From Kiritimatiellia bacterium (lineage in GTDB: Bacteria > Verrucomicrobiota > Kiritimatiellia > JAAZAB01), in the NCBI GenBank assembly GCA_040767085.1, contig JAXGPF010000003.1, forward strand, positions 128,001 through 192,000: DNA of 64,000 nucleotides. The letters run 5' to 3'. Below are positions 1 through 64,000 of this stretch, in pieces. Position 1 is the first letter of the stretch. The number at the start of each line of letters is the position of its first letter. The notes beneath the pieces are model-generated. The model saw nothing but the letters and a program-made list of their open reading frames with translations. It did not search any database and had not been told where the DNA came from. Made by a program: the position numbers and the translations under genes.

Positions 1-597
1 GCCGCATATAGCTGTGTCTTTTATAACCACAATGGTGGCCATTGTCATATATTTAATCTATTGACTATCAACTGATTATCCTGATCGCCTGCCTTCAAGA
101 TCGGCTTTATGCATATCCATGAATTAGGCTTTATGCCGACAAACATCATAATCTGGATCAATGTAATTCATAAAGACTACCTGGAACGCTTTCTCGAAAA
201 TATTTGATTATTTTAGGGATAGCTCCATTTTTTCAACACAGGCGCACACTGCTCGCAGTCAGATTACCTCAAAGCCATCCCCCATCTCAACGAAATGTCG
301 AATCGGCAGCGCAAAACCAACGTTCATAACGCAATCCTGATTTATATCATTCGAACCGGATTATTAATTTATAGGACTGACCCCCTCTGTCTGACAAACG
401 GTCATAGATGGGCTTGCCAGCGCGATAGTACGCCAAATGTTGGACAAAACTGACAACCAGTGGGTACTGGTTTCGGAATATGTCGGAATCGTATTTCATT
501 CTTTGACACAACGTCGCGAGTCACCGGACAGTGTAAGACGCGCTCCGGCGTAGCGCACAGGGTCACAGGCGCACATGGTCAGACCTCAAATTAAAAC

Positions 598-828
598 TTA
601 ATATCTCATCCGCCGTGCCGCTCCAATGAGTTTATGTCTAACAATCGCCCGGCTGCCGCCACCCAACGCGCCCGTGTTTGATATTCCAATCTGGAACATC
701 AAACGCGCAACATCTTGCTCGGGAATGGCGAACATATAATCTAGAGGGAACCGACCGCAGTTTCGTGCTACCGCTTTGTTGAGGTCTCCGTTGACTGCGT
801 CGATTTCCTCTGTGGTTTCGATCTTCAT
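598..828 (-). pseudogene. Truncated ORF6N-domain (phage antirepressor-like) remnant
   Basis: LNKAVARNCGRFPLDYMF...LMFQIGIS..GG resembles the ORF6N core (LNQAVKRN..RFP.DFMFQL), but the N- and C-terminal parts are missing; low-GC context. Confidence 0.55.
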
Positions 829-1000
829 CGCTCTGGCAGAACAACATTATCCAGCATTTTTTTAAATATAGATCAATCTCAGAAAATCGGCAATAAAATA
901 ATTTTGATAAGTTCATGGATAACAAGTAATTATTACTAATTAGCATTGGGTGTTAATAACTTTACCCGGGCGCAGATGCACGGTCATCCACAGAAGATTT

Positions 1001-1131
1001 ATCCGCAGATTACGCAGATTTTCGCAGATTATTTTCTGAGGATCCGGCATCTGCGTTAATCTGCGTAATCTGTGGATTATTTCTCTGCTTCATCCGGAAT
1101 GATCATCCGCAGATTACGCAGATTTTCACAG
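1001..1131. repeat. Palindromic CAGATTACGCAGATT repeat unit (~103 bp) plus partial second copy
   Basis: atccgcagattacgcagattttcgcagat ... atctgcgttaatctgcgtaatctgtggat; near-identical units at 2577-2758. Confidence 0.85.
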
Positions 1132-1141
1132 GCACGTGTGA

Positions 1142-1726
1142 TCACCGCCGCGGTTTACCGCGTACGCCGGATTTGCTTTTTTGCGCTTTTAATTTCAGAC
1201 GTTCCCGAATTTGTTTGAATTGGTCGCGCATGCCTTCGGCGACAGACCATCTTTCGATTTCTTTGATGTCTATCTTATTATTGCAGGCTACGGCAACCGC
1301 TTGGTCAAGGCACTGTCGATCATGATCGTGATAGAACCAAGTGAGTCTGTCTTTGACACAGTCGGTGGGCGATATGATCAGGAGCATTCCAGTGGCTGTT
1401 TTAATCTTTAGAATGTCCTTAACAGGTTCTTCCCCGACGGCTGGGGGGCCTTGAGGAAACTCGATAAACAGGTCGGTATCCGGGTGTTTGAAATATCGTC
1501 CGTTTTCGGAAAATCCCAGTTCCTGCATTGCCGCGCGAAGCTCGCTGCGCTTGGGTGCCATTAGCGCAGTGTGTATCAGGTCCAAGTCCATTGACAGATA
1601 TTTCCCCCGGCTGTAGATTGAGACACAGGCCCCGCCGGACAGCACCACGTCTATGCCTCTGACGCGCAGGCGCTCCTGTATGAAAGCGGCAAGTTCCGCT
1701 CTGTCCATTTCGCTGATTGACTTCAC
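1142..1726 (-). CDS. Putative nucleotidyltransferase (Pol-beta/AbiEii-like superfamily), possible toxin
   Basis: LSGGACVSIYS...SMDLDL (GG...DxD motif); GTG start overlaps the upstream stop (GTGA). Confidence 0.65.
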   Translation of the reverse strand: MKSISEMDRAELAAFIQERLRVRGIDVVLSGGACVSIYSRGKYLSMDLDLIHTALMAPKRSELRAAMQELGFSENGRYFKHPDTDLFIEFPQGPPAVGEEPVKDILKIKTATGMLLIISPTDCVKDRLTWFYHDHDRQCLDQAVAVACNNKIDIKEIERWSVAEGMRDQFKQIRERLKLKAQKSKSGVRGKPRR

Positions 1727-2052
1727 AATGGTTTTCCAAGACGCCTGGGCCTGCGCCTGTTCATAATAAGTTTTTCTTTCAAGTCTTCAGGACAGAACGT
1801 CATCACCTTGACAAGAAGATTTTTAAGCTCCGCCAGGAACGGACAACGAGGATTGAATGAATACAACCTTGTCCGTCCGACAGACCGGCTGCGGAGAATG
1901 CCTCCGATCTCAAGTCGATCAAGCTGGTTTCGAATAGGCTTGTAATCAACGCCGAAAAAACGTGCTATTTCGCGTGGATAACCCTCTCCGCGGGCTGAAA
2001 TGAACAACAAGACTTGTTCGCAACTTCTTGAACCAACCAAATATTCCAGCAT
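1723..2052 (-). CDS. Winged helix-turn-helix protein, possible antitoxin or regulator
   Basis: GYPREIARFFGVDYKPIRNQLDRLEIGGIL.SRSVGRTRLY wHTH pattern; AGGAG RBS; coupled to the NTase gene. Confidence 0.75.
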   Translation of the reverse strand: MLEYLVGSRSCEQVLLFISARGEGYPREIARFFGVDYKPIRNQLDRLEIGGILRSRSVGRTRLYSFNPRCPFLAELKNLLVKVMTFCPEDLKEKLIMNRRRPRRLGKPL

Positions 2053-2158
2053 TGGCCATACTCCTCAACCTTGCATTAATTGATGTCATGCATGCATCAC
2101 ATGATGCACTATTTACATCAATATACATCGGACATTTTTAACACGCAAGATTATTCTA

Positions 2159-2442
2159 CCTGAATTTTGCACCGCGCAAGTTTGGCGCAGGGCGCGGCGC
2201 GAGGGGTGCCGCTGTATAAATATACCGCAAATCCCCGAGCAACAAAGCCCTGCACCAAAAACTTGTCCGCCATAGTCGGACGGCGGCGGATCGCGCGGCT
2301 GGCTGCCGGCGAATATTGGTGTTTCCGGAAAATTTACTTGTGTAACCATATGGGTGATAGCAAATAACTGTGCAAATATTAATTTGCACTCGCTATGATT
2401 GCTTTAAATCATTTCAACACCAATATTCGTGCAAAATTCAGG
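2159..2442. mobile_element. MITE with 14-bp perfect TIR and 5-bp target duplication
   Basis: CCTGAATTTTGCAC (2159-2172) / GTGCAAAATTCAGG (2429-2442); TTCTA on both sides (2154-2158, 2443-2447); no credible ORF. Confidence 0.85.
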
Positions 2443-2576
2443 TTCTACAGAATTCCTGGTTCTGCCATTATCCTGGTTTTTAACCAGCCGGTCGTTGATG
2501 TATTTATGCAGGACGCTCGACAACAGCGTTTGGTACGGCATCCCTTTACAGGCGCACAGGGCCAGACTTCAAATTA

Positions 2577-2758
2577 GGATTACGCAGATTTTCGCAGATT
2601 ATTATCAGAAGATCCGGCATCTGCGTTAATCTGTGAAATCTGCGGATTATTTCTCTGCTTCATCCGGAATGATCGTCCGCAGATTACGCCGATTTTCGCA
2701 GATTATTATCAGAAGATCCGGAATCTGCGTTAATCTGCGTAATCTGCGGATTATTTCT
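2577..2758. repeat. Two tandem palindromic CAGATTACGCAGATT units
   Basis: Same unit and linker (tatttctctgcttcatccggaatgatc) as 1001-1131. Confidence 0.85.
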
Positions 2759-2893
2759 TCCCATTGGACGCGTGGCGGTCAAGAGCCTGACCGTTCTACC
2801 AAATTCAGGACAATTACGAAAATATTAATAAGTCGGAACAGACGGCTCACGGCACGTTCGCCCTCCAGCGGAAGCAGAGCGGGACGGGGGCCG

Positions 2894-2976
2894 GTCCTGA
2901 GCTTGTCGAATGGGCGTCCCGGCTCCAACGGGAACAGAGTGCGAAGAGGGCTTGTCCTGAGCTTGCCGAATGGGCG
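2894..2976. repeat. Two small hairpin repeats GTCCTGAGCTTG(T/C)CGAATGGGC
   Basis: Copies start near 2894 and 2954; a related inverted copy lies at 9124-9144. Confidence 0.7.
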
Positions 2977-4212
2977 TTACCGGTCCAGCCAGCGGCCGTC
3001 GAAGAGCAGATTGATGTCGCGCTGGATTTCCGCGCGCGTTACAAGCCAGCCGGCGCGGGCCAGGTCGAGGTATTTCTGGCTCAGGACGTCGCCGATGATG
3101 CCCCGGGAATGCCGCCATTTATAGATGAGCTGGTCGAGCACGCGGGCGTCGGAATGCTGGGGAATGAACGACAAACCGAGCATTTCCAGGCGCATGGCGG
3201 TAATCTCCCGGATGAGCGACGGGTTGTTCAGGAACCACCAGCAGCCGAATGGCAGCAGATTCTTGAACTTGCGCGCGGCCACGCAGAGCGCGTGCATGTT
3301 CTCGCGCGCCAGCATGGTCACCATGAACCGGACGTCGCCGAAATCCCGCGCCAGGTATTCCACCGTCTCCATCAGGGCGCAGCCCACGGAGTCGCCGGCA
3401 AGGACCAGGTCGGGGTTGACCAGTTTCCGGACGCCGATCATCATCGCCACGGGAATCCCGCGCTCGCGCGCGACGGGAATGGCCGCTTTGACCATGAGGT
3501 TTGTGATGCTGGATTCCACGTCGGGATAGCGGAAATCCGGCGGCAGACTGATGGCCAGGTAGCGCGCGTCCATTTTGTCGCACCACTCCATCAGGTACCG
3601 GCGCACTTCGGCCAGGGTCGGACCGGAAAGCGAGGTATCCGTCCGGTACCCCATCTGGCGCAGCCGCCCTGCCCCGGCCGGCCAGTTCATCAGGGCGCTG
3701 TCCAGGCGCAATACCGCCAGGAACCGGGAATCGCGCTGAAAGCCCCGCAGCCACACCGGCTGCTCCGCCGGATCCAGCGGATCGTTGGTCATGTAAACCT
3801 TGCGGATACCGGCCAAATCCAATACGCGGTCGGTATAGTCCCGGACATTCTGCCCGGCGAAATACTCGCGGTAGGTTTTCAGCGACCGCGCCGCGACATC
3901 CAGGCCCAGGGCGTCCAGCACCGTCAGCACCCCCCGGCAGGCTTCGGATACCGGCGAGCGTTTGACGAACAGTTCCTCCCAGACCAGTTCTGCCTGCCGG
4001 GCCTTGGGTTCCGCCAGGAAGTTCCGGCATTCCCAGTCCGGCCGGGCGCGCATGACTTCCGCCAGCAGGTAGTGATATGTCAGCAGTTCGTCAATCCCCC
4101 AGAGCAGCAACGGCCCCATGGCGGGATCGAAGGTATGGGTATGGATGTCGGTGATGGGCGTGGATGCCATTAATTCACTGACTGCCGCGCGTATTTCCGT
4201 TTCCTGGTTCAT
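2977..4212 (-). CDS. uxaC: Uronate (glucuronate) isomerase, divergent BH0493-like amidohydrolase type
   Basis: ITDIHTH metal motif, WGIDELLTYHYL, GCWWFLNNP, PQHSDARVLDQLIYKW. Confidence 0.85.
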   Translation of the reverse strand: MNQETEIRAAVSELMASTPITDIHTHTFDPAMGPLLLWGIDELLTYHYLLAEVMRARPDWECRNFLAEPKARQAELVWEELFVKRSPVSEACRGVLTVLDALGLDVAARSLKTYREYFAGQNVRDYTDRVLDLAGIRKVYMTNDPLDPAEQPVWLRGFQRDSRFLAVLRLDSALMNWPAGAGRLRQMGYRTDTSLSGPTLAEVRRYLMEWCDKMDARYLAISLPPDFRYPDVESSITNLMVKAAIPVARERGIPVAMMIGVRKLVNPDLVLAGDSVGCALMETVEYLARDFGDVRFMVTMLARENMHALCVAARKFKNLLPFGCWWFLNNPSLIREITAMRLEMLGLSFIPQHSDARVLDQLIYKWRHSRGIIGDVLSQKYLDLARAGWLVTRAEIQRDINLLFDGRWLDR

Positions 4213-4235
4213 ATATCACGCCCTCTCGTCTGTGT

Positions 4236-4443
4236 CATCCGCGGATTATTTTTTATCCACAGATTACGCAGATTTTCGCAGATTATTTTACCTGAATACG
4301 GCAAACGGAAAATCCTCTCACCCGCCTTCGTCAAGACTACGGTGGGCAAGCCCAAGCCACCAAGAAAGCACCAGCAGGAACTGCCGCATAGCAGCATGTT
4401 TTCCTTCACCGCTCGTCCTTCGTGGCTTAGTGTCTTTGTGAGA
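4236..4443. repeat. Intergenic repeat cluster: CAGATT repeat, 30-bp micro-hairpin and CTTCGTGGCTTAGTGTCTTTGTG-type repeat
   Basis: tatccacagattacgcagattttcgcagatt at 4255-4285; ccgccttcgtcaagactacggtgggcaagc at 4322-4351. Confidence 0.65.
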
Positions 4444-5860: not shown

Positions 5861-5964
5861 GGCAAAACCTCCTATGATAGCATGATTGCCTCATTCCCGA
5901 GCGGAAAAGAGGTAATATTTCTTATAGCAAACTGCCCTGCTATGTCAAGCAATAACCGCCAATC

Positions 5965-7350
5965 TGTCGTAAACAAATGACTTGGCCGCATAATTAACAA
6001 ATGATTTGTCCGCTTAAAGCTGTCAGGATGGTGCATTCAAAGGGGGGTTATATGGATGAATATCCGAAGGCAGCACTGGAGCGGGCAATGAAGGTACAGG
6101 AAGTGATCTTGCGTGCGATTGAAGGGCGGTTAATGTGGTGGGAGGCGGCGGAGATACTAGGTGTGAGCTACCGGACCATGCGGCGCTGGAAAGGGCGCTA
6201 CGAGCGGTATGGTTACGACGGGCTGCTGGATCGTCGGCGGAAGATACCGGGGCCGCGGCGCGTGCCCCTTGCGACGGTGAAGCAGGTGCTGAGGTTGTAC
6301 CGAGAAGAATACATGGATTTCAATGTGAGGCATTTTCACGAGAAGCTGCAGGCGGAGCATGGGATCGAGCTCAGTTATCAGTGGGTCAAGAGCGCCTTGC
6401 AGACGGCCGGGTTGGTGGCGAAGGCCCGGAAACGAGGGCCGCATCGGCAGCAGCGGGAACGGCGACCAATGGCGGGGATGATGTTGATGGTGGATGGCAG
6501 CACCCATGCCTGGTTGCCCCTGCTGGCGGGCCAGAAGCAGGATCTGATCCTGGTGATGGACGATGCCACCAGCGAAGTCTACACGGCCTATCTTGTGCCC
6601 CAGGAAGGGACATTAACGGTGATGAAGGGGTTGAAAGAAGTCATTATTAAACATGGGGTTTTCTGCAGTCTGTACACGGATCGTGGCAGTCATTTCTTTT
6701 ATACGCCCAAAGAAGGCGGGGCGGTGGACCGGCGTCAATTGACGCAAATTGGACGGGCGTTGCAACAGTTGGGGATCGAACATATTCCGAGCTATAGCCC
6801 CCAGGGACGTGGGCGAATAGAGCGGATGTTTAAGACCTGGCAAGGGCGCCTGCCGCAGGAATTAAGGCAGGCGGGAATCCGGACGATGGCCGAGGCCAAC
6901 GTCTATATTCAACAACAGTTTCTGCCTTCCTTCAATCGCAACATGAAGGTGAAGGCGCGGGAAACAGGAACGTGTTTCGTGCCTTGCGGTGAGCAGGATT
7001 TGGACAGCATTTTCTGTGTGCAGCATGCGCGAGAGGTTCAAAATGACAATACCGTGGCTGTCGGGAGTCGCCGCTTGCAGATTGGACCATCAAAATGGCG
7101 TTTCAGCTTCGCCAAGTGCCGGGTTAAAGTCTGCGAGCACCTCGATGGCACGGTGTCCATCCGTTATGGCCCGCATGTGGTTGGCCGCTACCAAGGACCG
7201 TTGAACATTTCGGCGTCGCTGGAGGACGTCGCATAAACTTTTTCCTCCCCCGCGGGGGAGGAAAATCCTCACCCCAGGAGCAACAACACACAATAACAAA
7301 TCGGACAGATCACTTGTTACAAAAAGCGGACACTTGACTTGTTACGAACA
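5965..7350 (+). mobile_element. Complete IS of the IS1202 (ISNCY) type, 1386 bp, 16-bp target duplication
   Basis: TGT...ACA ends with imperfect IRs (TGTCGTAAACAAATGACTTGGCCGC / TGTTCGTAACAAGTCAAGTGTCCGC); GCAATAACCGCCAATC at 5949-5964 and 7351-7366. Confidence 0.9.
6052..7236 (+). CDS. DDE transposase, IS1202/ISNCY type
   Basis: N-terminal HTH (EAAEILGVSYRTMRRW); DGSTH, DDATS, YTDRGS, PQGRGRIER.F.TWQGRL; start uncertain (6052 or 6088). Confidence 0.9.
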   Translation: MDEYPKAALERAMKVQEVILRAIEGRLMWWEAAEILGVSYRTMRRWKGRYERYGYDGLLDRRRKIPGPRRVPLATVKQVLRLYREEYMDFNVRHFHEKLQAEHGIELSYQWVKSALQTAGLVAKARKRGPHRQQRERRPMAGMMLMVDGSTHAWLPLLAGQKQDLILVMDDATSEVYTAYLVPQEGTLTVMKGLKEVIIKHGVFCSLYTDRGSHFFYTPKEGGAVDRRQLTQIGRALQQLGIEHIPSYSPQGRGRIERMFKTWQGRLPQELRQAGIRTMAEANVYIQQQFLPSFNRNMKVKARETGTCFVPCGEQDLDSIFCVQHAREVQNDNTVAVGSRRLQIGPSKWRFSFAKCRVKVCEHLDGTVSIRYGPHVVGRYQGPLNISASLEDVA

Positions 7351-7375: not shown

Positions 7376-7514
7376 TTGGTGTAGTAGTCCGGCTTTGCCG
7401 GACATCCCAGATTCCTGATGCGCCACGCAGTGGCGCTGCTACAACCGGAGCCGGATGCGCCACGCAGTGGCGTTGCTACAACCGGAGCCGGATGCGCCAC
7501 GCAGTGGCACCGCT
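7376..7514. repeat. GTAG-type REP cluster: one hairpin plus 2.7 tandem 37-bp units, flanked by a 23-bp direct repeat
   Basis: gatgcgccacgcagtggcgYtgctacaaccggagccg at 7417, 7454 and 7491 (partial); aataaccgccaatYcggtgatgc at 7353-7375 and 7515-7537. Confidence 0.8.
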
Positions 7515-7550
7515 AATAACCGCCAATTCGGTGATGCAGCATACTGGCGC

Positions 7551-8923: not shown

Positions 8924-9303
8924 GGTATAAGACAAATTAGTTGGAGTAGTACGGCAGCAGGGATGCGTAGCGAATTCCGTTCGAAAAGAACGGCGGCCAT
9001 TTTGGGGCGTCTGTCCGCTGCGCGGACCCTGCGGGCGTGGTTGCAGGCGATGGCGCAATCAAGAGATTAGCGCCATCGCCTGCGCCCACGCATCCACCCC
9101 AAACTTGCCTTGTTTTTTCGAACCCCTCGACAAGCTCGGGGAGCGGAATTCGCAACGCGGTGGCCCAATTTCGGCCAGGATGGTGTAACCTGGCCGAAAT
9201 TACCGGAATTTACATGTTGTATCTATAACGGACTCATAAATCACACTGAAATCCACCGTGAATTTAAAGTTTATACAAATCACCAATAAAATTGTCTTAT
9301 ACC
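8924..9303. mobile_element. MITE-like element with 12-bp perfect TIR, ~11-bp target duplication and a long internal hairpin
   Basis: GGTATAAGACAA / TTGTCTTATACC; cgccgcagcca (8913-8923) versus cgccgcggcca (9304-9314). Confidence 0.75.
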
Positions 9304-9320: not shown

Positions 9321-9480
9321 CAGGGCTGCGTTATGCTCAGAACAGACGGCTCGGTACGGAGACCTCGCCCTACCGTTTCATAAGCATTTGTCGTGGGTAG
9401 GGCGAGACCCCGCTTGAAGCGGGGTAAACCGCCGGTCCCGCTTGGCGCGGGAGCGAGCCGCCGAGAATGACGCAGCCGTG
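9321..9480. mobile_element. MITE with CAGGGCTGCG-type ends, family copy 1, carrying a GTAG REP pair
   Basis: cagggctgcgttatgctc / gagaatgacgcagccgtg; flanks gccaacacct / cccaacgcct (8 of 10 match). Confidence 0.75.
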
Positions 9481-9635
9481 CCCAACGCCTGCAACGTCGG
9501 TATTTTAAGCTTGCATGGCCGGGCATTTGTGCTAATAATTCATACAGTGGATGCAGAATTTGGAGGGGGCAGCCAAATAGGCCTATATTCTGAATTCTTT
9601 CACAACGAGAGTTTTGAAATCTGTTCCGGCGTAAA

Positions 9636-9686
9636 ACCTTAACACTCTAACACCTTAAAACTTTAAAACACCTTAAAACTTTGAAA
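9636..9686. repeat. AT-rich short tandem repeat (CCTTAAAACTTTAAAACA-type)
   Basis: caccttaaaacttt occurs twice; a related array lies at 42473-42541. Confidence 0.55.
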
Positions 9687-9719
9687 ATGTTCGAATTTTT
9701 TGCCAAATTCTGCCATTGC

Positions 9720-10013
9720 ATGAGAACTGCCGCCGCGGCGGTAAAAAGCGTTCCGGCAGCCGGCGTTGCCCGACGCGCGCAAGCCGGCAAAAACCGCCCC
9801 GGTGAAGCCCTGCTGTACAGCGAGCGCCTGCAGATTGAGCGCAAGCAATTTTACTTCGAATTGAAGGAAAACGCCAGCGGCCAGTTCCTGCGGATGACCG
9901 AAGATGTCGGCGGCCGGCGCGACACGATCATTGTGCCCGCCACGGGTTTGACGGAGTTCCGCGAGGCAGTCGCGCGGGCCGATGCCGCCCTCGGCCACGG
10001 CGACGCGCCTTGA
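9720..10013 (+). CDS. PUR-repeat (PurA/DUF3276-like) nucleic-acid-binding protein
   Basis: LYSERLQIERKQFYFELKENASGQFLRMTEDVGGRRDTIIVP matches the PUR-repeat pattern; start uncertain. Confidence 0.8.
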   Translation: MRTAAAAVKSVPAAGVARRAQAGKNRPGEALLYSERLQIERKQFYFELKENASGQFLRMTEDVGGRRDTIIVPATGLTEFREAVARADAALGHGDAP

Positions 10014-10065: not shown

Positions 10066-11748
10066 TCAGGGCAAGGGAAATTCCGCCGTCATGTCCAGCA
10101 CCTCGCTCCGGATGCTTTGCAGGAGCTGGGCATTCTTGTGATCGCGCACCACTGCGCCGATCCACGCGGCGATCCGGCGCATTTCAGGCTCTTTCATGCC
10201 GCGCGTGGTGACGGCCGGGGAGCCGACCCGGATGCCGGAAGTGACAAAGGGCGTTTTGGTGTCGAACGGGATCATATTCTTGTTCACGGTAATGCAGGCC
10301 GCGTCCAAGGCGGTGGCGATATCCTTGCCGCTTACCCCGGCGGGCGTCAGGTCCACCAGCATCAGGTGGTTATCCGTGCCCCCGGAAACAATCCGCAGTC
10401 CTTCAGCTTTCAGGCCTTCCGCCAGGGTCTGGGCATTGCGCACGACCTGTTCCTGGTAGGTCTTGAATTCCGACTGCAACGCCTGGTGGAAACAGACGGC
10501 CTTGGCGGCGATGATATGCATCAAGGGGCCGCCCTGCATGCCCGGGAAGATCTGCCGGTCAATATCCTGCGCAAATTGTTCGCGGCACATGATGATGCCG
10601 GCGCGCGGGCCGCGCAGGGTTTTATGCGTGGTGGAGGTGACAAAATGAGCGTGCGGCACCGGGTTGGGATGGTAGCCGGCCGCCACCAGTCCGGCGATGT
10701 GGGCCATGTCGACCATCAAATACGCCGAAACGCTGTCGGCAATCTGGCGGAACCGCTTGAAATCCAGGATGCGGGAATAGGCGCTGGCGCCCGCGACGAC
10801 GAGCTTGGGCTTGTACGCCTCGGCCAACCGGGCCAATTCGTCATAATCAATCTGCTCGGTCTCGCGGTTGACGCCGTAATGCATGACATTGTAATACTTG
10901 CCGGAAAAATTCACTTTCATCCCGTGGGTCAGATGCCCGCCATGCGCCGGATCCATGGCCAGCATGCGGTCGCCGGGCTTCAGCACCGCCAGGTAAACCG
11001 CCAGGTTGGCGGAGCTGCCGCAATGGGGTTGCACGTTGACGTGTTCGGCGCCGAACAATTCCCGGGCCCGGTCAATCGCCAGTCTTTCGGCATCGTCCAC
11101 GTAAGCGCACCCGTTATACCAGCGCTTGCCCGGGTAGCCCTCGGCGTATTTATTGGTCAAGAGCGAGCCGGCGGCCTCGCGCACGGCGCGGCTGACGTAA
11201 TTTTCCGAAGCGATCAGCTCCAGGTTTTCGCGCTGGCGCCGCGCCTCGTTGCGCAAGGCGGCGTAAATTTCCGGGTCCGTCTCGCCGATTTCCACCGGGT
11301 CAACCATGTTGCAGGTGTAAGCGTGGATTTTGTTCACCCGCCGCTGGTGCCGCTCGCTTTTGTCGAAATCCTCGTCCAGCCAGGCGGTCAGCACCGCGCG
11401 GGCCTCCTCGATGCTAATCAATTCGCCGCCCAACACCAGCACGTTGGCGTTGTTGTGCGCGCGGGCCATCTTGGCCATGCGCGGCGTCAGGCACAGCGCC
11501 GCGCGCACGCGCGGAAACTTGTTGGCGGTAATGCTCATGCCGATGCCGGTGGTGCAGATCAGCAAGCCCTGGTCCACCGCGCCCTGCGAAACCCGGTCCG
11601 CCACCAGCGCGGCGTAATCCGGGTAATCCACCGACGTCCGGTTGAAACAGCCCAGGTCTTCCGTCTGCATGCCGCGGGCCGCCAGCGATTCCAGCAGCGC
11701 CGTTTTCATTTCAAATCCGCCATGATCGCAACCTACCGCTATTTTCAT
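10066..11748 (-). CDS. rpiB-glyA: Fused ribose-5-phosphate isomerase B / serine hydroxymethyltransferase
   Basis: [22 protein letters not shown], then [29 protein letters not shown] in one open frame. Confidence 0.93.
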
Positions 11749-15043: not shown

Positions 15044-15241
15044 TGAGGTATCCACAGAAAAACATATCCTTATTCTGCCGTAACTGCCGTAAAAAACAAG
15101 CAAATCCGGTGAAAATCCAGGCTGCATGCGCTACTGCGTGTCCCGCCGTAGTCCGACGGAGCGGGAATCCTGAACCGGCGATGAGATCAAAATGACGTAA
15201 CCCTGGCGGGGCACCGCGCAAGAACCGCCACACCCGGCAAC

Positions 15242-25986: not shown

Positions 25987-27098
25987 GGGGTCAGTCCCGT
26001 ATTCTAGTAATTTCATCCAGTTGCCTGCGCTTTTTTATGATCTGCCGATCCTGATTCATTTCAATCATACGCGGGTAACGCGAGAAGCAATCCACCCGCC
26101 CCATGATCAGCTTTTGACAAATCCATTGATTTGGCACCGCGGTCCGGCGGCGTATCAGCCAGGCGATCAAACATTTTTCGGCGTCAATGTGTTTTCTTGC
26201 CTGCATTTGAGCAAGTGGCACCCCAAAATGCTCTAATGCCCGCTTGAGCAGAATTTCCGCTTCCTGTTCGTCATGCTTGCGTGCAGCTTCCCCAGAGTAA
26301 GATTCGCGCTTCCCTGGAAGTCTTTCCATACGTTGCGCTAAAATACGCCGGAATGTTTCATTGCCATAATACCAACCCCGGCGGACCGCTTCCCATTCAG
26401 AAGCATCCTTTTGGGCGCCTTTTCTCGTGGATATTTCCGTAACACGCCTGTTTATATATATCTGGTAATCCAACCGCCCCCGTGGCGTCGCACTAAAACC
26501 CGAAGCGCTTAAAACACGTTTCGTTTCAAGCCAAGCCGGATGCTGGTGCTGGATATAAAACCGATAGCTGCTCCAGGGAAAAGCTTCCAACCCATTTTTC
26601 ATTACTTCCCGCAATCGGGCGCGTACGGGATTAAGGTGAATATACAAGCTTAACGCGGCAAAATAATGGCTGTCCACGCTAACCGGAATGGCCTTATAGC
26701 GCCCCTGGAATAAATGCCCGCAGGTGCCATTACGCAAATGGAAGCGTTGGGTATATGTTCCTTGGAGCCACTTCATCCCGGCCACCAGGTTGGCTTCCGG
26801 CGTTTCAAACAGCAGATGGTAATGATTGGGCATCAGCACGTAGGCATGGATTCGCCAACCGGTGCGCTCGCATGCCTCACCCAAAGCCGCAAGAAAGGCG
26901 TGCCTGTCACGGTCATTCAGAAAAATGAGATTGCGCCCGTTGCCACGGCTCATCACATGGTATACGGCGCCCTCATATTGAATGCGCAACTTTCTTGGCA
27001 TAGAACACTATTTATCAAAAAACAAAATGGACAACAAGATTTAAAAGCGGTTTCTGCACCAGAACGATGCAAATATACTATTATACGGGACTGACCCC
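25987..27098 (-). mobile_element. RAYT-type element bounded by a perfect 16-bp inverted repeat
   Basis: GGGGTCAGTCCCGTAT (25987-26002) / ATACGGGACTGACCCC (27083-27098); lower GC than its flanks. Confidence 0.8.
25991..27001 (-). CDS. REP-associated tyrosine transposase (Y1 HUH)
   Basis: YHVMSRG, YVLMPNHYHLL, GHLFQGRY, YIHLNPVRA, PWSSY. Confidence 0.9.
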   Translation of the reverse strand: MPRKLRIQYEGAVYHVMSRGNGRNLIFLNDRDRHAFLAALGEACERTGWRIHAYVLMPNHYHLLFETPEANLVAGMKWLQGTYTQRFHLRNGTCGHLFQGRYKAIPVSVDSHYFAALSLYIHLNPVRARLREVMKNGLEAFPWSSYRFYIQHQHPAWLETKRVLSASGFSATPRGRLDYQIYINRRVTEISTRKGAQKDASEWEAVRRGWYYGNETFRRILAQRMERLPGKRESYSGEAARKHDEQEAEILLKRALEHFGVPLAQMQARKHIDAEKCLIAWLIRRRTAVPNQWICQKLIMGRVDCFSRYPRMIEMNQDRQIIKKRRQLDEITRIRD

Positions 27099-39047: not shown

Positions 39048-39081
39048 CCCGGCGGCGGCGGGGCAAACTGGGGGATGAACC

Positions 39082-39303
39082 CGGGGCTGCGTTATGTTCA
39101 GCGGCTCGCTCCCGCGCCTTGCGCGCCGTTCCGGATCGGAGGCGGCCAAGGGACCCAGGCTTTGCCAAGGCTACGCCGGGCAAGCTGGCCGCCCTACCGA
39201 AGCATGAATACAGATTCCGGAGGCAGGGCGAGGTCTCCCTGCGTGCTGCGCTATGCAGGGCAAGCCGTACCGAGCCGTCTTTTCCGAGAATGACGCATCC
39301 CCG
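39082..39303. mobile_element. MITE with CAGGGCTGCG-type ends, family copy 2
   Basis: cggggctgcgttatgttc / gagaatgacgcatccccg; flanks gggatgaacc / gggctgaacc (9 of 10 match). Confidence 0.8.
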
Positions 39304-39367
39304 GGGCTGAACCGGGAATGGAAAAGCGCGCTTGTGCGGACGGCGGCGCTATGTTAAGCTTGGCCCG

Positions 39368-42400: not shown

Positions 42401-42731
42401 ATTAGACCGTTCCGTTTCGACTTAATATCCCATTGTATGGGACAAGCATTTTTGCATGGCATAATATTATCGTGGTTTTAAGGTGTTACGTTTTAAGGTT
42501 TCAGGCATAAAACTTTAAAACCATAAAACTTAAAACTTTAACGCGGCGCGGGAGTGAACGTTGGTAATTTGAGACTTGTCCTTCGTAGCCGAAGGCTAAG
42601 TAGGATTGCGGCCTGTGCGCCGCTTTGGGGTGAACCGAATTTATCGGCACTTAACAATAGTGAGGTGTGATATTGAGCGCATGCCGGCAGGGTGTTCAGA
42701 CTCTTGATCGCGTTGAGGCACAAGGAGCAGA

Positions 42732-47114: not shown

Positions 47115-47303
47115 CAGGGCGGCGTCATTCTCGGCGGCTCGCTCCCGCGCCAGGCGGGACAAGCCGGAGGTTGACCCCGCTTTGAGCGGGGTCTCGCCCT
47201 ACCCGGGGAATCTGCTGAAGGTAGGGCGAGGTCTCCCTGCGTCGCTGAAGCTATGCAAGGCAAGCCGTACCGAGCCGTCTGTTCTGAGAATGACGCAGCC
47301 GTG
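47115..47303. mobile_element. MITE with CAGGGCTGCG-type ends, family copy 3 (inverted relative to copy 1)
   Basis: cagggcggcgtcattctc / gagaatgacgcagccgtg; interior matches the reverse complement of 9321-9480; no target duplication seen. Confidence 0.75.
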
Positions 47304-49450: not shown

Positions 49451-51844
49451 TTATTTCGTCACCAATCCCAGCCAACCCTGGATGACCGGCGAAAGCTTGA
49501 TGAATACGGGCGTAAAGACGATGCACACCATGCTCATCAGTTTGATCAGGATGTTCAGCGACGGGCCGCTGGTGTCCTTGCAGGGATCGCCGACGGTATC
49601 GCCGATCACGGCCGCGCCATGGACGGGATTCTTCGTGCCATCCGGCAGTTTCTTGCCGCCTAAATTCCCCTTTTCGACAAACTTCTTGGCGTTATCCCAG
49701 GCGCCGCCGGCGTTGTTCAGCATGGTGGCGAAAACGAACCCGGTGGCCAGGCCGCCGGCCAGCAGACCGATTACACCGCCTATTCCCAGCACCAGACCGG
49801 TGACAACCGGCACCACAATAGCCAGCAGCGACGGAACCATCATTTCCCGTTGAGCGCCGGCGGTGGAAATGGCCACACAGGTGGCGTAATCGGGCTTGTC
49901 CTTGCCTTCCATGATCCCGGGCTTCTCCCGGAACTGGCGGCGCACTTCATTGACCATGGCGCCGGCGGCGCGGCCCACCGCCTTCATCGTCAGGGCGCAG
50001 AACACGAACACCATCATGCTGCCCATAAAAATACCGCACAGCACCAGTGGATTCATGAGATTGATATCGTAGGCATCAACAAAATACCGGATATCTTCAC
50101 GCGCGGCCGCGGCGGCATTCACGGAAACCTTGCCGATCGAAAACCCTTCCGCGCCAGCGGCATACTTGCCGATCCACATTTTAACTTCTTCCAGGCAGGC
50201 GGCCAGCAGCGCCATAGCCGTCAACGCCGCGGAACCGATGGCAAAGCCCTTGCCTGTCGCGGCGGTGGTGTTGCCCAGGGCGTCCAGGGCGTCGGTGCGC
50301 TGCCGCACTTCCGGCGGCAATTCCGACATCTCAGCGTTGCCGCCGGCATTGTCGGCAATCGGCCCATAGGCGTCGGTCGCCAGCGTGATGCCCAGCGTGG
50401 AAAGCATGCCGACCGCGGCGAAGCCGATGCCGTACAAGCCCATGGTGAAGTTGCTGAATCCGCCGGAAAGCCCGAAGGCGAACAGAATGCCGATGGCAAT
50501 GATCACCACCGGCGCGGCCGAGGAAAGCATCCCCGTAGCCAGGCCCTCGATGATCACCGTCGCCGGGCCCATCTTGGCCTGTGTAGCGATTTCCCTGGTG
50601 GGCTTGTATTCATCGGAAGTATAATATTCCGTCGCCTGCCCGATCAGCACGCCGGCGAACAACCCGGCAATCACCGCGCCGAAAATGCCCCACGGCACCA
50701 CGCCTGTGGCCGCCAACACCGCCATGGCCGCCACGATCAGCACTGAACTGCCAAGCGTCCCCGTCAGCAGGGCCCGCAGCAGGTTCTTCTGGCTGGCGCC
50801 TTCTTTGCACCGCACCATGAACATGCCGATGATCGAAAGGACGATGCCGATGCCGGCCACCACCATGGGCGCGGTAATGTACTTGATGGCCAGAGCAGGA
50901 TTATGCGCCTGGATGCCGACGGAGGCGCCCAGGGCGGCGGTGGCCAGGATCGAGCCGCAGTAGGATTCGTAAAGGTCGGCGCCCATGCCGGCTACGTCGC
51001 CGACATTATCGCCGACGTTGTCGGCAATGGTGGCCGGATTGCGCGGGTCGTCTTCCGGAATGCCCGCTTCCACCTTGCCCACCAGGTCGGCGCCGACGTC
51101 GGCCGCCTTGGTGTAAATGCCGCCGCCGACGCGCGCAAACAACGCCTGGGTGGAGGCGCCCATACCGAAGGTCAGCATGGTGGTGGTGATATGCACCAGT
51201 TTTTCATCCACGGTGCAGCCCGCATGCACCAGTTCCAGGCCCAGGAAATGCAGTCCGTTGGCCATGTTGGCCGTGGTGAAGACCAGCTTATCGAGAATCA
51301 GGTACCACAGGCAGATATCCAGCAGGCCGAAACCTACTACCACCAACCCCATAACAGCGCCGGAGCGGAAGGCCACCTGCAAGCCGCGGTTGAGGCCTTC
51401 GCTGGCGCCCTGCGCCGTGCGCGAGGAGGCATGGGTGGCGGTTTTCATTCCCAGGAAACCGCACAACCCGGAGAAAAAGCCGCCCGTCAGGAAAGCGACC
51501 GGCACAAACGGATTCTGAATGCCGATTTTGGCCAGAACCGCGAACACCGCCACCAGGGCCACGAACACCCAGAGCACGACCTTGTATTGGCGGAACAGGT
51601 AGGCCATGGCGCCTTCGCGCACATACCCGGCAATCTCAATCATCCGGGCATTGCCGGGATGGGCCGCCATCATCAGCCGGTAGAAATATACCGCAAACAC
51701 CAGGGCGATGACCGCGGTCACCGGCGCCAGCCACCAAATGCCCGGGGTTAAGTTAAGGTTGGCCTCGCTGGCAGCGGCCCAGGGGGCCGTCGTCAACAAC
51801 AATCCCGCCACCGCCATCAATCCTGCCCAAGCGTTTTTCATCAT
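49451..51844 (-). CDS. hppA: Membrane ion-translocating pyrophosphatase, K+-dependent type
   Basis: [49 protein letters not shown]. Confidence 0.96.
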
Positions 51845-59690: not shown

Positions 59691-59923
59691 CCTGAATCCG
59701 TGATGAGGTCAGTATGCCGCGGATGCGAGGCGCGAAGGATGAAGCTGTATAAATATACCGCGAATCCTTCGCAACAAAGCAGATGCGGCATAATGGCCTC
59801 ACCCGCAGGGCGGTCTTTTCCGCCAAACAACGCCGTGTGTTTTTGGTGATATTTTAAAATGACATAAATTGTTGTTGGTACGCACATTATCTTGACAACA
59901 TAAAATTCCGTCACGGATTCAGG
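59691..59923. mobile_element. MITE with 13-bp perfect TIR and 5-bp target duplication, related to 2159-2442
   Basis: CCTGAATCCGTGA / TCACGGATTCAGG; TATTG at 59686-59690 and 59924-59928. Confidence 0.85.
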
Positions 59924-62139: not shown

Positions 62140-62199
62140 TGCCGCACGCAGTGCGGCACTACAGGAACGGGCCGGATGCCGTCGCAGTGCGGCACTGCA
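62140..62199. repeat. Two GTAG-type REP hairpins related to 7417-7514
   Basis: tgccgcacgcagtgcggcactaca and tgccgtcgcagtgcggcactgca. Confidence 0.65.
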
Positions 62200-62408
62200 T
62201 TGATCTTCTATCCCGTCTGACGCTGGACACCCGCGCGACGCACCAATTCCGGCGGGGATGGTTTTAGCACCCTGCCGGAATTAACCGGAAATATAAAGGA
62301 TATATTGGATTTTATGCAATTTTAGTGAGAGAATTCAATGAAACAACAAAATCCTTTTCTGATCAACAATTTTATCCTATAATTTTACGTCCGCGAAAAA
62401 ATCCGCGC

Positions 62409-62450: not shown

Positions 62451-62522
<72 letters not shown>

Positions 62523-62708
62523 CCCTTAAAACCCTTGTAAAACAAGCCTTTTCTCGTGTTTCCCTGTTTCCCGGCAGCCCTGTAATTGCCATTTAGGGTA
62601 CAATTAGGGGAATTGTTTTCTTGACCGGCGCCCGGCATTGCCTTAGATTGCCCAGTGTAGCCCGGGAATGTTGGTTCCCCTTTTTGTACCCTGATCGGGA
62701 GGCTGGCC

Positions 62709-64000
62709 ATGGCGCTGGAAATGAAACTTACATCCCGCTGGTGGTACGCGCGCTTCCTGGTGAACGGCAAGTTGCGGCGCTTTCCCCTGATGGAACGGCG
62801 CGGCGGGCAAGAACAGCGGGTTGAAATCAAAGGCCGCCGGCCGGCCAGCCTGAAGCATCCCGAGCAAGGCGATGCGGCCTTCCTCGAATCGTATCACCGC
62901 GCGCGCGCCGCGCATGACCGGCTGTCCGAGGAAGAACTGACGCGCCACTCTGTCGAAGACCTGGCGCAACGGATTGTCGAGGCGAAGACCGGCACGCGGC
63001 TTGATTTTGTGAAGGTTGAATCGGTTCCGGATGCCTGGGCATCCCTACCACGTAAACGCCCGCCTTCACCGCAATATCTTGAGACCGGCAAATCCAAATT
63101 GCGGTGCTTTACCACCTTTATGCGGAAAAACTATCCCGCGGTGGAAGACCTGGCCGCTATCCGCACGGAGCATGTCCGCACATTCCTGGACACGGAATCC
63201 GCGCGCGGCGTTGCGCCGCGCACCTGGAACATTACGCTAAAACTGCTCAAAACCGTCTTCGCAAAGTTGGAGCCGAATGCGGACGCATACCGTACTTTCC
63301 TGAAGAATGCGGCCTTCAAGGACGAAGACACCATACACCGGGAGCCGTTCAACGACGAGGAACTGGACGCAATCCTTGTTGCGACGCGTGAGGATGAGAT
63401 TCTGCGCGGACCGCTGGTGACCGCACTCTGCACGGCCATGCGGCGTGGAGATTGCTGTTGCTTGAAATGGGAGAGCGTGGACCTTGGCGCGGGCTTCATC
63501 GAAGTCTGCACCAGCAAGACCGGCGAGACGGCGGAAATCCCCATCCTGCCGTTACTGCGCCAGGAGCTTTTAACTCTGTCGCAGACCGGCGGCGAATATG
63601 TGTTTCCCAAGGCCGCAGCATTGTACCAGACCGATCCGCGTGCCGTTGACCGGCGCCTGCAGGTAATTCTGGCCCGGGCCGGGTTCGTGGATGTCCCGGC
63701 GCCGCCGGCCACCGGAAACGCGGGCGGCAAAAATCCGGAACCAAAACCGCCGATCCCGGAAATCCCACGGGACGAACTTCGCCAACGTGGACTGGACGCG
63801 ATTACCGCCACGGACATGCTTGAGGCAAAACGCCAGCGAATGAAAGTTGTTTTCACGGCCTATTTGGACGGAAAAAGCCTGCCGGCAATTGCCCGTGAAT
63901 TTGGTTTAAGCAAGAGCACCGTATCGCTGCACCTGCATGAGATTGAAGATATGCTCGGCCTGGCCGTCTTCCGCCGTCCAGCGCCGCCGGCGATCCCCGC
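62709..64000 (+). CDS. Tyrosine recombinase/integrase, runs off the window end and is absent from the ORF track
   Basis: Manual translation from GGAGG-ATG 62709 is open to the end: WWYARF.VNGK arm-like start, APRTWN core, HREPF..EEL, TAMRRGD..LKW.SVDL, TSKTG, YVFP. Confidence 0.9.
   Translation, partial: MALEMKLTSRWWYARFLVNGKLRRFPLMERRGGQEQRVEIKGRRPASLKHPEQGDAAFLESYHRARAAHDRLSEEELTRHSVEDLAQRIVEAKTGTRLDFVKVESVPDAWASLPRKRPPSPQYLETGKSKLRCFTTFMRKNYPAVEDLAAIRTEHVRTFLDTESARGVAPRTWNITLKLLKTVFAKLEPNADAYRTFLKNAAFKDEDTIHREPFNDEELDAILVATREDEILRGPLVTALCTAMRRGDCCCLKWESVDLGAGFIEVCTSKTGETAEIPILPLLRQELLTLSQTGGEYVFPKAAALYQTDPRAVDRRLQVILARAGFVDVPAPPATGNAGGKNPEPKPPIPEIPRDELRQRGLDAITATDMLEAKRQRMKVVFTAYLDGKSLPAIAREFGLSKSTVSLHLHEIEDMLGLAVFRRPAPPAIP

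Follow-up and report, generated by a model that had tools for sequence, protein, structure and literature searches.

A small, dispersed REP-like hairpin module within a long palindrome of a Kiritimatiellia bacterium

A short hairpin module, referred to here as M, is lodged in a long palindromic repeat of this bacterium and constitutes a discrete, dispersed and REP-like unit that recurs far above chance. The DNA covered comprises a stretch of 64 kb that was analysed as a whole (the window) together with about 21 kb of related DNA, and in both the palindrome occurs with M as well as without it. An earlier note on the window had proposed a very small mobile unit; a discrete and dispersed unit, present also in unrelated intergenic contexts, is indeed what we find, although recent movement of it is not indicated.

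Filled and empty sites in the palindromic repeat

The sequence GTAGGGCGAGGTCTCC directly abuts GTACCGAGCCGTC at 9345-9373 on the minus strand, which is the empty site, whereas the same two blocks are parted by 30 nt (47237-47266) at 47221-47279 and by 28 nt (39239-39266) at 39223-39279, both on the plus strand. The left block has three matches in the window against 0.34 expected, a number that none of 100 shuffled sequences reached. Both inserts break the repeat at the identical point, with a placement that is ambiguous by 2 nt (CC). The sequences and positions given in the earlier note (9346-9373, 47237-47266 and 39239-39266) and its common break point are all correct. If the ambiguity is set as T^CC, the insert begins precisely with the 5' arm and ends with the CAAG tail, i.e. 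47235-47264 (+) for the 30-nt module (CCCTGC...GCAAGG followed by CAAG) and 39237-39264 (+) for the 28-nt module. The insert limits resolved in this way are the unit limits that the other copies of the M family define. In the junction alignment M shows neither a target duplication nor terminal inverted repeats, a combination that fits HUH-type rather than DDE-type chemistry; the junction overlap is 2 nt.

The interrupted repeat, which the earlier note had regarded as a REP hairpin in itself, turned out to be one arm (the right one) of a long imperfect palindrome of 121-230 nt with terminal inverted repeats CAGGGCTGCGTCATTCTC / GAGAATGACGCAGCC.., of which the window holds three copies and which a Kiritimatiellia MAG has at two loci. 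The first window copy, c47k (47115-47303, plus strand), consists of modules A, B and M and folds at -58.5 kcal/mol (z -5.3). The second, c39k (39080-39305, plus strand; single-strand fold -60.1 kcal/mol, z -2.5), has a variant of A and an enlarged B region holding an M copy, in addition to M in the right arm; M is thus present there in two different copies, each at a site of its own. The third, c9k (9321-9480, minus strand; -46.6 kcal/mol, z -4.9), contains A without CAAG, and B, and has no M. BLAST comparison of the palindrome with plasmids gave no match.

The MAG copies were located by scanning genome contigs with both anchors separated by a gap of 0-60 nt, which returned six loci. Three of these (L002, L003 and L005) were discarded as chance matches with no likeness beyond the anchors, and the remaining three (L001, L004 and L006) all derive from one Kiritimatiellia MAG, L001 and L006 being counted as one locus because 59 identical bases overlap at the contig ends. 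The L001/L006 locus is empty, and L004 is filled by 54 nt of module M at the same site. The empty MAG palindrome is the simplest form observed, i.e. an almost perfect hairpin of 121 nt (-43 kcal/mol, z -8.5) whose one internal loop places CC opposite TAC. Two inverted GG(A/G)GGTCTCGCCCTACC units make up the palindrome, which as such a dimer is REPIN-like or TIR-dimer-like.

With regard to genomic setting, the suggestion that the palindromes always lie sense-downstream of genes was dropped, c9k being situated in a divergent region by a PurA-like gene, and GC skew, which tracks gene strand, yields no replication direction. Several other features were recorded, most of them around c9k: a strong isolated hairpin, GCAGGCGATGGCGC ... 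GCGCCATCGCCTGC, lies at 9041-9089, about 230 nt from the repeat; arrays of an AAAACYTT-like 8-nt unit occur in AT-rich intergenic DNA at 9618-9684 and at 42480-42542, the former just upstream of the PurA-like ssDNA/RNA-binding protein gene (9681-10013); and an ORF of 560 aa at 10066-11748 on the minus strand combines an RpiB/LacAB isomerase domain (residues 3-141) with a complete serine hydroxymethyltransferase domain (156-530).

Alignment of the five palindromes (c47k, c39k, c9k, L004 and L006; alignment A3) indicates that the presence of M reflects a single old event. Of the 123 columns that all five copies share, two, columns 11 and 14, split the copies exactly as M does, with c47k, c39k and L004 filled and c9k and L006 empty; the two subfamilies, with and without M, exist in both genomes. 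At column 14 the empty copies have a base that is probably derived, because with it the terminal stem contains a C.C mismatch. Since M is linked to two substitutions, a single old event is enough, either an insertion or a deletion; the two explain the pattern equally well, five copies being too few to give the direction. The contrast of filled and empty sites drawn in the earlier note stands, with three filled and two empty copies in all, although it fits one old deletion also. Comparison of c47k with L004 gave four substitutions in 30 aligned columns of M against three in 36 columns of the right arm; M is thus no more diverged than its flanks, which argues for co-inheritance, and independent insertions are not indicated. 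The pattern is likewise consistent with the earlier suggestion that the two filled window copies descend from one insertion.

A second, genome-specific partition, formed by A, B and columns 40 and 111, conflicts with the partition given by M. This conflict can be explained if A and B were gained or lost more than once, or if the copies within each genome evolved in concert. A four-gamete reading, under which gain and loss would have recurred at the M site itself, was rejected, as M travels with two linked substitutions.

The M family and its companion modules

The 14-nt core of M, CTAYGNNRGRCAAG, has six exact matches in the window (2262-, 4337+, 39171+, 39251+, 42575- and 47251+) against 0.04 expected, and in none of 100 shuffles was this number reached; allowing one mismatch added no further match in the window. 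The unit, of 21-31 nt, starts with a 5' arm rich in C; its loop ends in (R)RCTAY and is followed by the G-rich 3' arm, GNNGGR, and by CAAG(CC) as a tail. In addition to the two right-arm copies, the family includes stand-alone copies at 4321-4350 (+), 2262-2290 (-) and, with a short loop, 42575-42595 (-), a copy in the left arm of c39k (39154-39184, +) that occupies the position of module B inside an 8-bp inverted repeat GGCGGCCA/TGGCCGCC, and a degenerate copy, CTACGGCGGGACA, at 15139-15165 (-). The relatives named in the earlier note are accordingly real as far as the six exact cores are concerned, while the one near 15138 is degenerate and without CAAG; their placement mostly within other hairpins, as the note had it, holds only for the three copies inside palindromic repeats. 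All seven copies are intergenic, with flanking genes that are supported by Pfam.

An nhmmer profile built from the seven copies, with which the window and the six contig loci were searched, recovers all seven (E 0.0015-0.59) and no eighth window copy better than E 4.4; the L004 copy scores E 2.7 and is outranked by one unrelated match in L002 (E 1.8). The counts of M are seven copies in the 64-kb window and, for the related MAG, one copy over about 21 kb. Copies from different loci are strongly diverged and have little in common beyond the 14-nt core, so that recent transposition is not indicated; the activity appears to be old and not ongoing.

The upstream arm of each copy complements its own GNNGGR, 37 of 42 positions being Watson-Crick paired in a joint test of seven copies, of which two share ancestry. 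Shuffled upstream sequences gave a mean of 29.6 pairs (sd 1.6), with none of 5000 reaching 37, and swapping of upstream partners among the copies gave at most 35 pairs, with none of 1854 arrangements reaching 37; stem pairing is consequently copy-specific. Taken singly the stems are unremarkable, the observed pairing being reached by 108-1348 of 2000 shuffles in the six valid copies. The same applies to folding energies: six of the seven hairpins fold no better than shuffles, including the copy at 47235-47264 (z +0.59) and those around 2262, 4337 and 15138 (z -0.49, +0.96 and -0.42, respectively). The sole individually significant hairpin is that at 42575 (z -5.2), where the hairpin extension amounts to only 4 bp.

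These data refute the view that the resemblance among M copies is a product of chance in GC-rich intergenic DNA. Such a view could point to the single stems of 5-6 bp, which are not significant, and to the generic combination of a 5-bp hairpin followed by CAAG, which is common (46 entries, overlapping registers and several genuine family copies included). It is, however, irreconcilable with six exact cores where 0.04 are expected, with the joint stem test and with the same insert at the same site in a second genome.

A further alternative is that the core is a functional cis element, i.e. a host-protein site or a hairpin of untranslated RNA, which is retained by selection through compensatory stem changes and whose presence in the palindrome is either incidental or itself selected for. 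The conserved 14-nt core, the fixed spacing and the covarying stems are in keeping with this, as is the retention of pairing in copies that are old and diverged, and REPs are described as lying mostly downstream of genes, where they may act as RNA (PMC3733652). Five of the seven M copies are sense to both flanking genes and two are antisense to both, an arrangement that neither supports nor excludes a role as RNA. We nevertheless consider a cis element improbable: comparison with 4227 Rfam families returned nothing at the repeats, either at gathering score or at E<=1 (the sole match at gathering score in the window being a tRNA), the hairpins are thermodynamically weak, the copies have no shared position relative to gene starts or ends, and a T-run follows only one of the seven (2262).

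M is accompanied by other hairpin modules. Module A (47143-47163, +; TCCCGC-GCCAG-GCGGGA-CAAG, z -3.2) follows the stem-loop-stem-CAAG plan of M minus the CTAY loop, and module B (47172-47192, +) is a 21-nt hairpin GACCCCGC-TTTGA-GCGGGGTC (z -7.1); both occur in the window palindromes and in neither MAG copy, and taking A out restores the MAG sequence with zero junction overlap. A is situated within the CC/TAC internal loop of the basal hairpin, M lies at most 1-3 nt from the opposite side of that loop, and B sits at two G.T stem positions. A-type hairpins also stand alone, at 42428-42446 (+; TCCCA-TTGTA-TGGGA-CAAG) in the window and at 9703-9723 of L004. The module in L004 consists of M plus 24 nt in its loop, and the hairpin of this extra piece matches, at 16 of 17 positions, a window hairpin, H2 (7387-7403, +; GTCCGGC-TTT-GCCGGAC); the MAG locus therefore displays nesting at three levels, i.e. 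H2 within M within the palindrome. Junction microhomology, read from the five-copy alignment, is 0 nt for A, A' and H2, 3 nt for B and 2 nt for M.

These observations bear on an alternative in which M, A and B are not mobile and are simply optional side hairpins of the palindrome, the short form being a one-off deletion; precise loss, by polymerase bypass or slippage at the hairpin base, would be combined with recombination or gene conversion among copies. A single event would indeed be enough for M, since the empty copies share two substitutions of which one is probably derived, the distribution of A and B (in both window subfamilies and neither MAG one) is the signature of concerted evolution, and there is microhomology of 2-3 nt at the M and B junctions. 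We consider this explanation possible but rather unlikely, as there is no such microhomology at A, A' or H2, as two different M copies occupy two sites of c39k, and as hairpins of the M, A and H2 types stand alone at 4337, 42575, 2262, 15139, 42428, 7387 and L004 9703; the first origin of the modules at these positions is, moreover, left unexplained. Unit-like behaviour is in fact better supported by the stand-alone M, A and H2 hairpins and by the nesting than by the contrast between filled and empty sites.

Other small repeats and features of the window, away from the palindromes, were noted in passing. GATTACGCAGATTTTCGCAGATTAT and its inverted partner form a repeat family (998-1153, 2568-2760 and 4229-4303) at the left end of the window, where GC is low (0.52 in 1-4000) and where two tandem 60-nt units of 78% identity (2863-2982) also lie just downstream of the 3' end of an ORF at 2977-4212 on the minus strand, for which there was no family match. 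A third small repeat, with centre GCTGTATAAATATACCGC, is intergenic at 2192-2234, 51680-51706 and 59725-59767. Towards the right end, a weak phage-integrase-like ORF (62709 to the end of the window) comes after a tRNA gene at 62452-62522, and 62452-63998 may mark the border of an integrated element.

A candidate mobiliser and a proposed route

A gene for a Y1 HUH transposase of RAYT/TIRYT type is present at 25991-27001 on the minus strand. The 336-aa product matches Pfam Y1_Tnp (5.2e-12) and, at 8.4e-16 and 58 bits, i.e. below the cutoff of 80, NCBIfam REP_Tyr_transpos; the gene is intact, and H60-Y61-H62 and Y102 are invariant in all 12 aligned homologues. E values of 1e-10 or better were obtained for 7645 of the 8000 candidate homologues scored; the homologues include names from Pontiella, Kiritimatiellales and Kiritimatiellota, in agreement with the Kiritimatiellia origin of the related MAG, and some are titled 'REP element-mobilizing transposase RayT' by one source. 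A phmmer search of PDB sequences with the protein gave no match. The gene is bracketed by a perfect 16-nt inverted pair of GGGGTCAGTCCCGTAT, one repeat (25987-26002, +) overlapping the stop codon and its partner (27083-27098, -) lying upstream; a degenerate third copy was seen at 369-384 (-).

The earlier note had suggested looking for an HUH/RAYT gene flanked by the inserted motif, and here the result is divided, as a Y1 gene is present and its flanks are not M. None of the six exact M cores is at this gene, and GGGGTCAGTCCCGTAT matches the core of the palindrome at only 9 of 16 ungapped positions, so that nothing but its enzyme class makes 25991-27001 a candidate mobiliser; the 64 kb yielded no gene cognate to the palindrome.

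The window also encodes an ISNCY-family DDE transposase (6001-7236; 352 bits against a cutoff of 250), and this enzyme gives some substance to an explanation of M as a classical MITE moved by a DDE transposase such as this one. We disfavour this explanation as highly improbable, given that M has neither the terminal inverted repeats (15-30 bp) nor the target-site duplication of a MITE, that its 21-31 nt are below the 70-300 bp reported for MITEs (PMC3733652), and that no M core lies beside the ISNCY gene. As a separate observation, AATAACCGCCAAT recurs as a direct repeat on both sides of the ISNCY transposase gene, near 5951, 7353 and 7512.

The explanation that we tentatively favour is that M is a family of short REP-like hairpins which entered the palindrome once, having been moved as single-stranded DNA by a Y1 HUH enzyme. 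M would have entered the right arm of a REPIN-like or TIR-dimer-like palindrome without target duplication, at or beside the internal loop of the folded palindrome, and would thereafter have been inherited as the mark of one of the two palindrome subfamilies. M, A and H2 would be non-autonomous single-strand elements, whose folded single-stranded DNA may be recognised, cut and joined in trans by a RAYT/TIRYT-type Y1 HUH enzyme, for example that encoded at 25991-27001, and the accessible targets would be the unpaired positions of extruded palindromes. The family, its boundaries and junctions, the nesting and the presence of this enzyme class are matters of observation; from these we infer an insertion, a single-stranded route and an enzyme of the Y1 type. 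The earlier idea that the unit targets structured DNA draws its support from no more than three module sites in one palindrome.

A stronger form of the proposal, in which M, A and H2 are true mobile elements of 17-30 nt that a TIRYT-type Y1 enzyme inserted, with no target duplication, at unpaired positions of palindromes folded as single strands, and in which composite repeats would grow by recursive nesting, we consider unlikely. If it were true, these modules would be among the smallest mobile elements proposed in bacteria. Should the modules move, they would reveal the stepwise assembly of REP/BIME-like mosaics, would identify loops and bulges of extruded palindromes as entry points for single-strand transposition, and would offer concrete candidate substrates for TIRYT-type Y1 enzymes, the substrates of which are poorly known. 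Should they not move, the locus would simply illustrate, in an ordinary way, how a palindromic repeat forms subfamilies and evolves in concert. Literature searches, made without naming the phylum, met no description of such repeats in Kiritimatiellota.

Comparison with known repeat systems

IS200/IS605-derived palindrome-associated elements carry distinct subterminal hairpins at both ends, whereas each M unit has one hairpin. REPs are described as palindromes of 20-40 bp with an unpaired GTAG or CGTC end, often arranged as inverted dimers (PMC3733652), and REPINs as inverted REP doublets that are thought to be mobilised by RAYTs (PMC3116915, PMC5581495); in vitro, the TnpA-REP protein of E. 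coli cleaves and recombines REP/BIME DNA that is folded as a single strand (PMC3333891, PMC8266576). The repeats studied here resemble REPs, BIMEs and REPINs, as portrayed in those reports, in being short extragenic units with a GTAG-like tag, arranged in mosaics or doublets, in forming long hairpins and in lacking target duplication (PMC3333891, PMC8266576, PMC3116915, PMC3733652). The palindromic unit of M, at 21-31 nt, is of REP size, and the host palindrome in its 121-nt basal form is, like a REPIN, an inverted pair that folds as one long hairpin. M copies, in contrast, are singletons and not inverted doublets, their stems differ between copies, the CTAY (complement of RTAG) is internal, between the loop and the 3' arm, and the unpaired end is CAAG in place of GTAG or CGTC. 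In addition, the Y1 gene is flanked by GGGGTCAGTCCCGTAT and not, as in a REPtron, by the repeat in question. M is therefore REP-like in behaviour and departs from REPs in two defining features, namely the position of the tag and a cognate, flanked transposase. Units of canonical GTAG-plus-hairpin REP architecture are also present in the window, as three tandem 37-nt units at 7414-7524 (hairpin GCGCCAC-GCA-GTGGCGC then TGCTAC, the canonical form being read on the other strand) and as similar hairpins at about 62140-62200.

The transposase gene itself is closer to the TIRYT genes, for which Di Nocera et al. (2013) reported flanking repeats with GGGGWSAS, such TIRs being in some cases moderately abundant families organised as dimers (PMC3733652). 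The gene at 25991-27001 has the Y1 HUH domain and catalytic tyrosine of this class, and its inverted pair, which starts with GGGGTCAG and overlaps the 3' end of the gene with one member, fits GGGGWSAS; the difference from a TIR system lies in the palindrome, whose core agrees with the repeat of the gene at so few positions.

REPs within palindromes provide a second parallel. In the families described in PMC3733652, GTAG-23 units of T. roseum lie inside small palindromes CCGSSCC(n3,4)GGSSCGG, GTAG-15 dimers of A. variabilis and CGTC-1 dimers of H. neapolitanus lie inside longer palindromes, and some REP loops hold further self-complementary segments of up to 27 bp. The picture of a hairpin within a hairpin is alike, but the guests in those examples are tagged REPs of defined families, whereas here a REPIN-like host has received three different guests, untagged or internally tagged, with nesting three-deep in the MAG. 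REP hairpins are also known as preferred targets of insertion sequences (Tobes and Pareja 2006, PMC1525189); the guests in that account are full elements of the IS110, IS3 and other families encoding a transposase, while the guest in the present case is non-coding and of 21-54 nt.

The nearest precedent for mobile units as small as these is provided by the small dispersed repeats (SDR) of the cyanobacterial Nostocaceae, which have been proposed to be mobile and of which SDR5 uses the HIP1 palindrome as its insertion site (PMC5861425). These belong to another phylum, and their likeness to M is one of behaviour. The SDR units of Elhai et al. (2008) are reportedly 21-27 nt long and were found, as is M, in filled and empty versions of otherwise similar sequences. 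Our best reading is that the repeats of this Kiritimatiellia bacterium resemble the known mosaic repeats of REP/BIME type, and that M is a putative old single-strand element.
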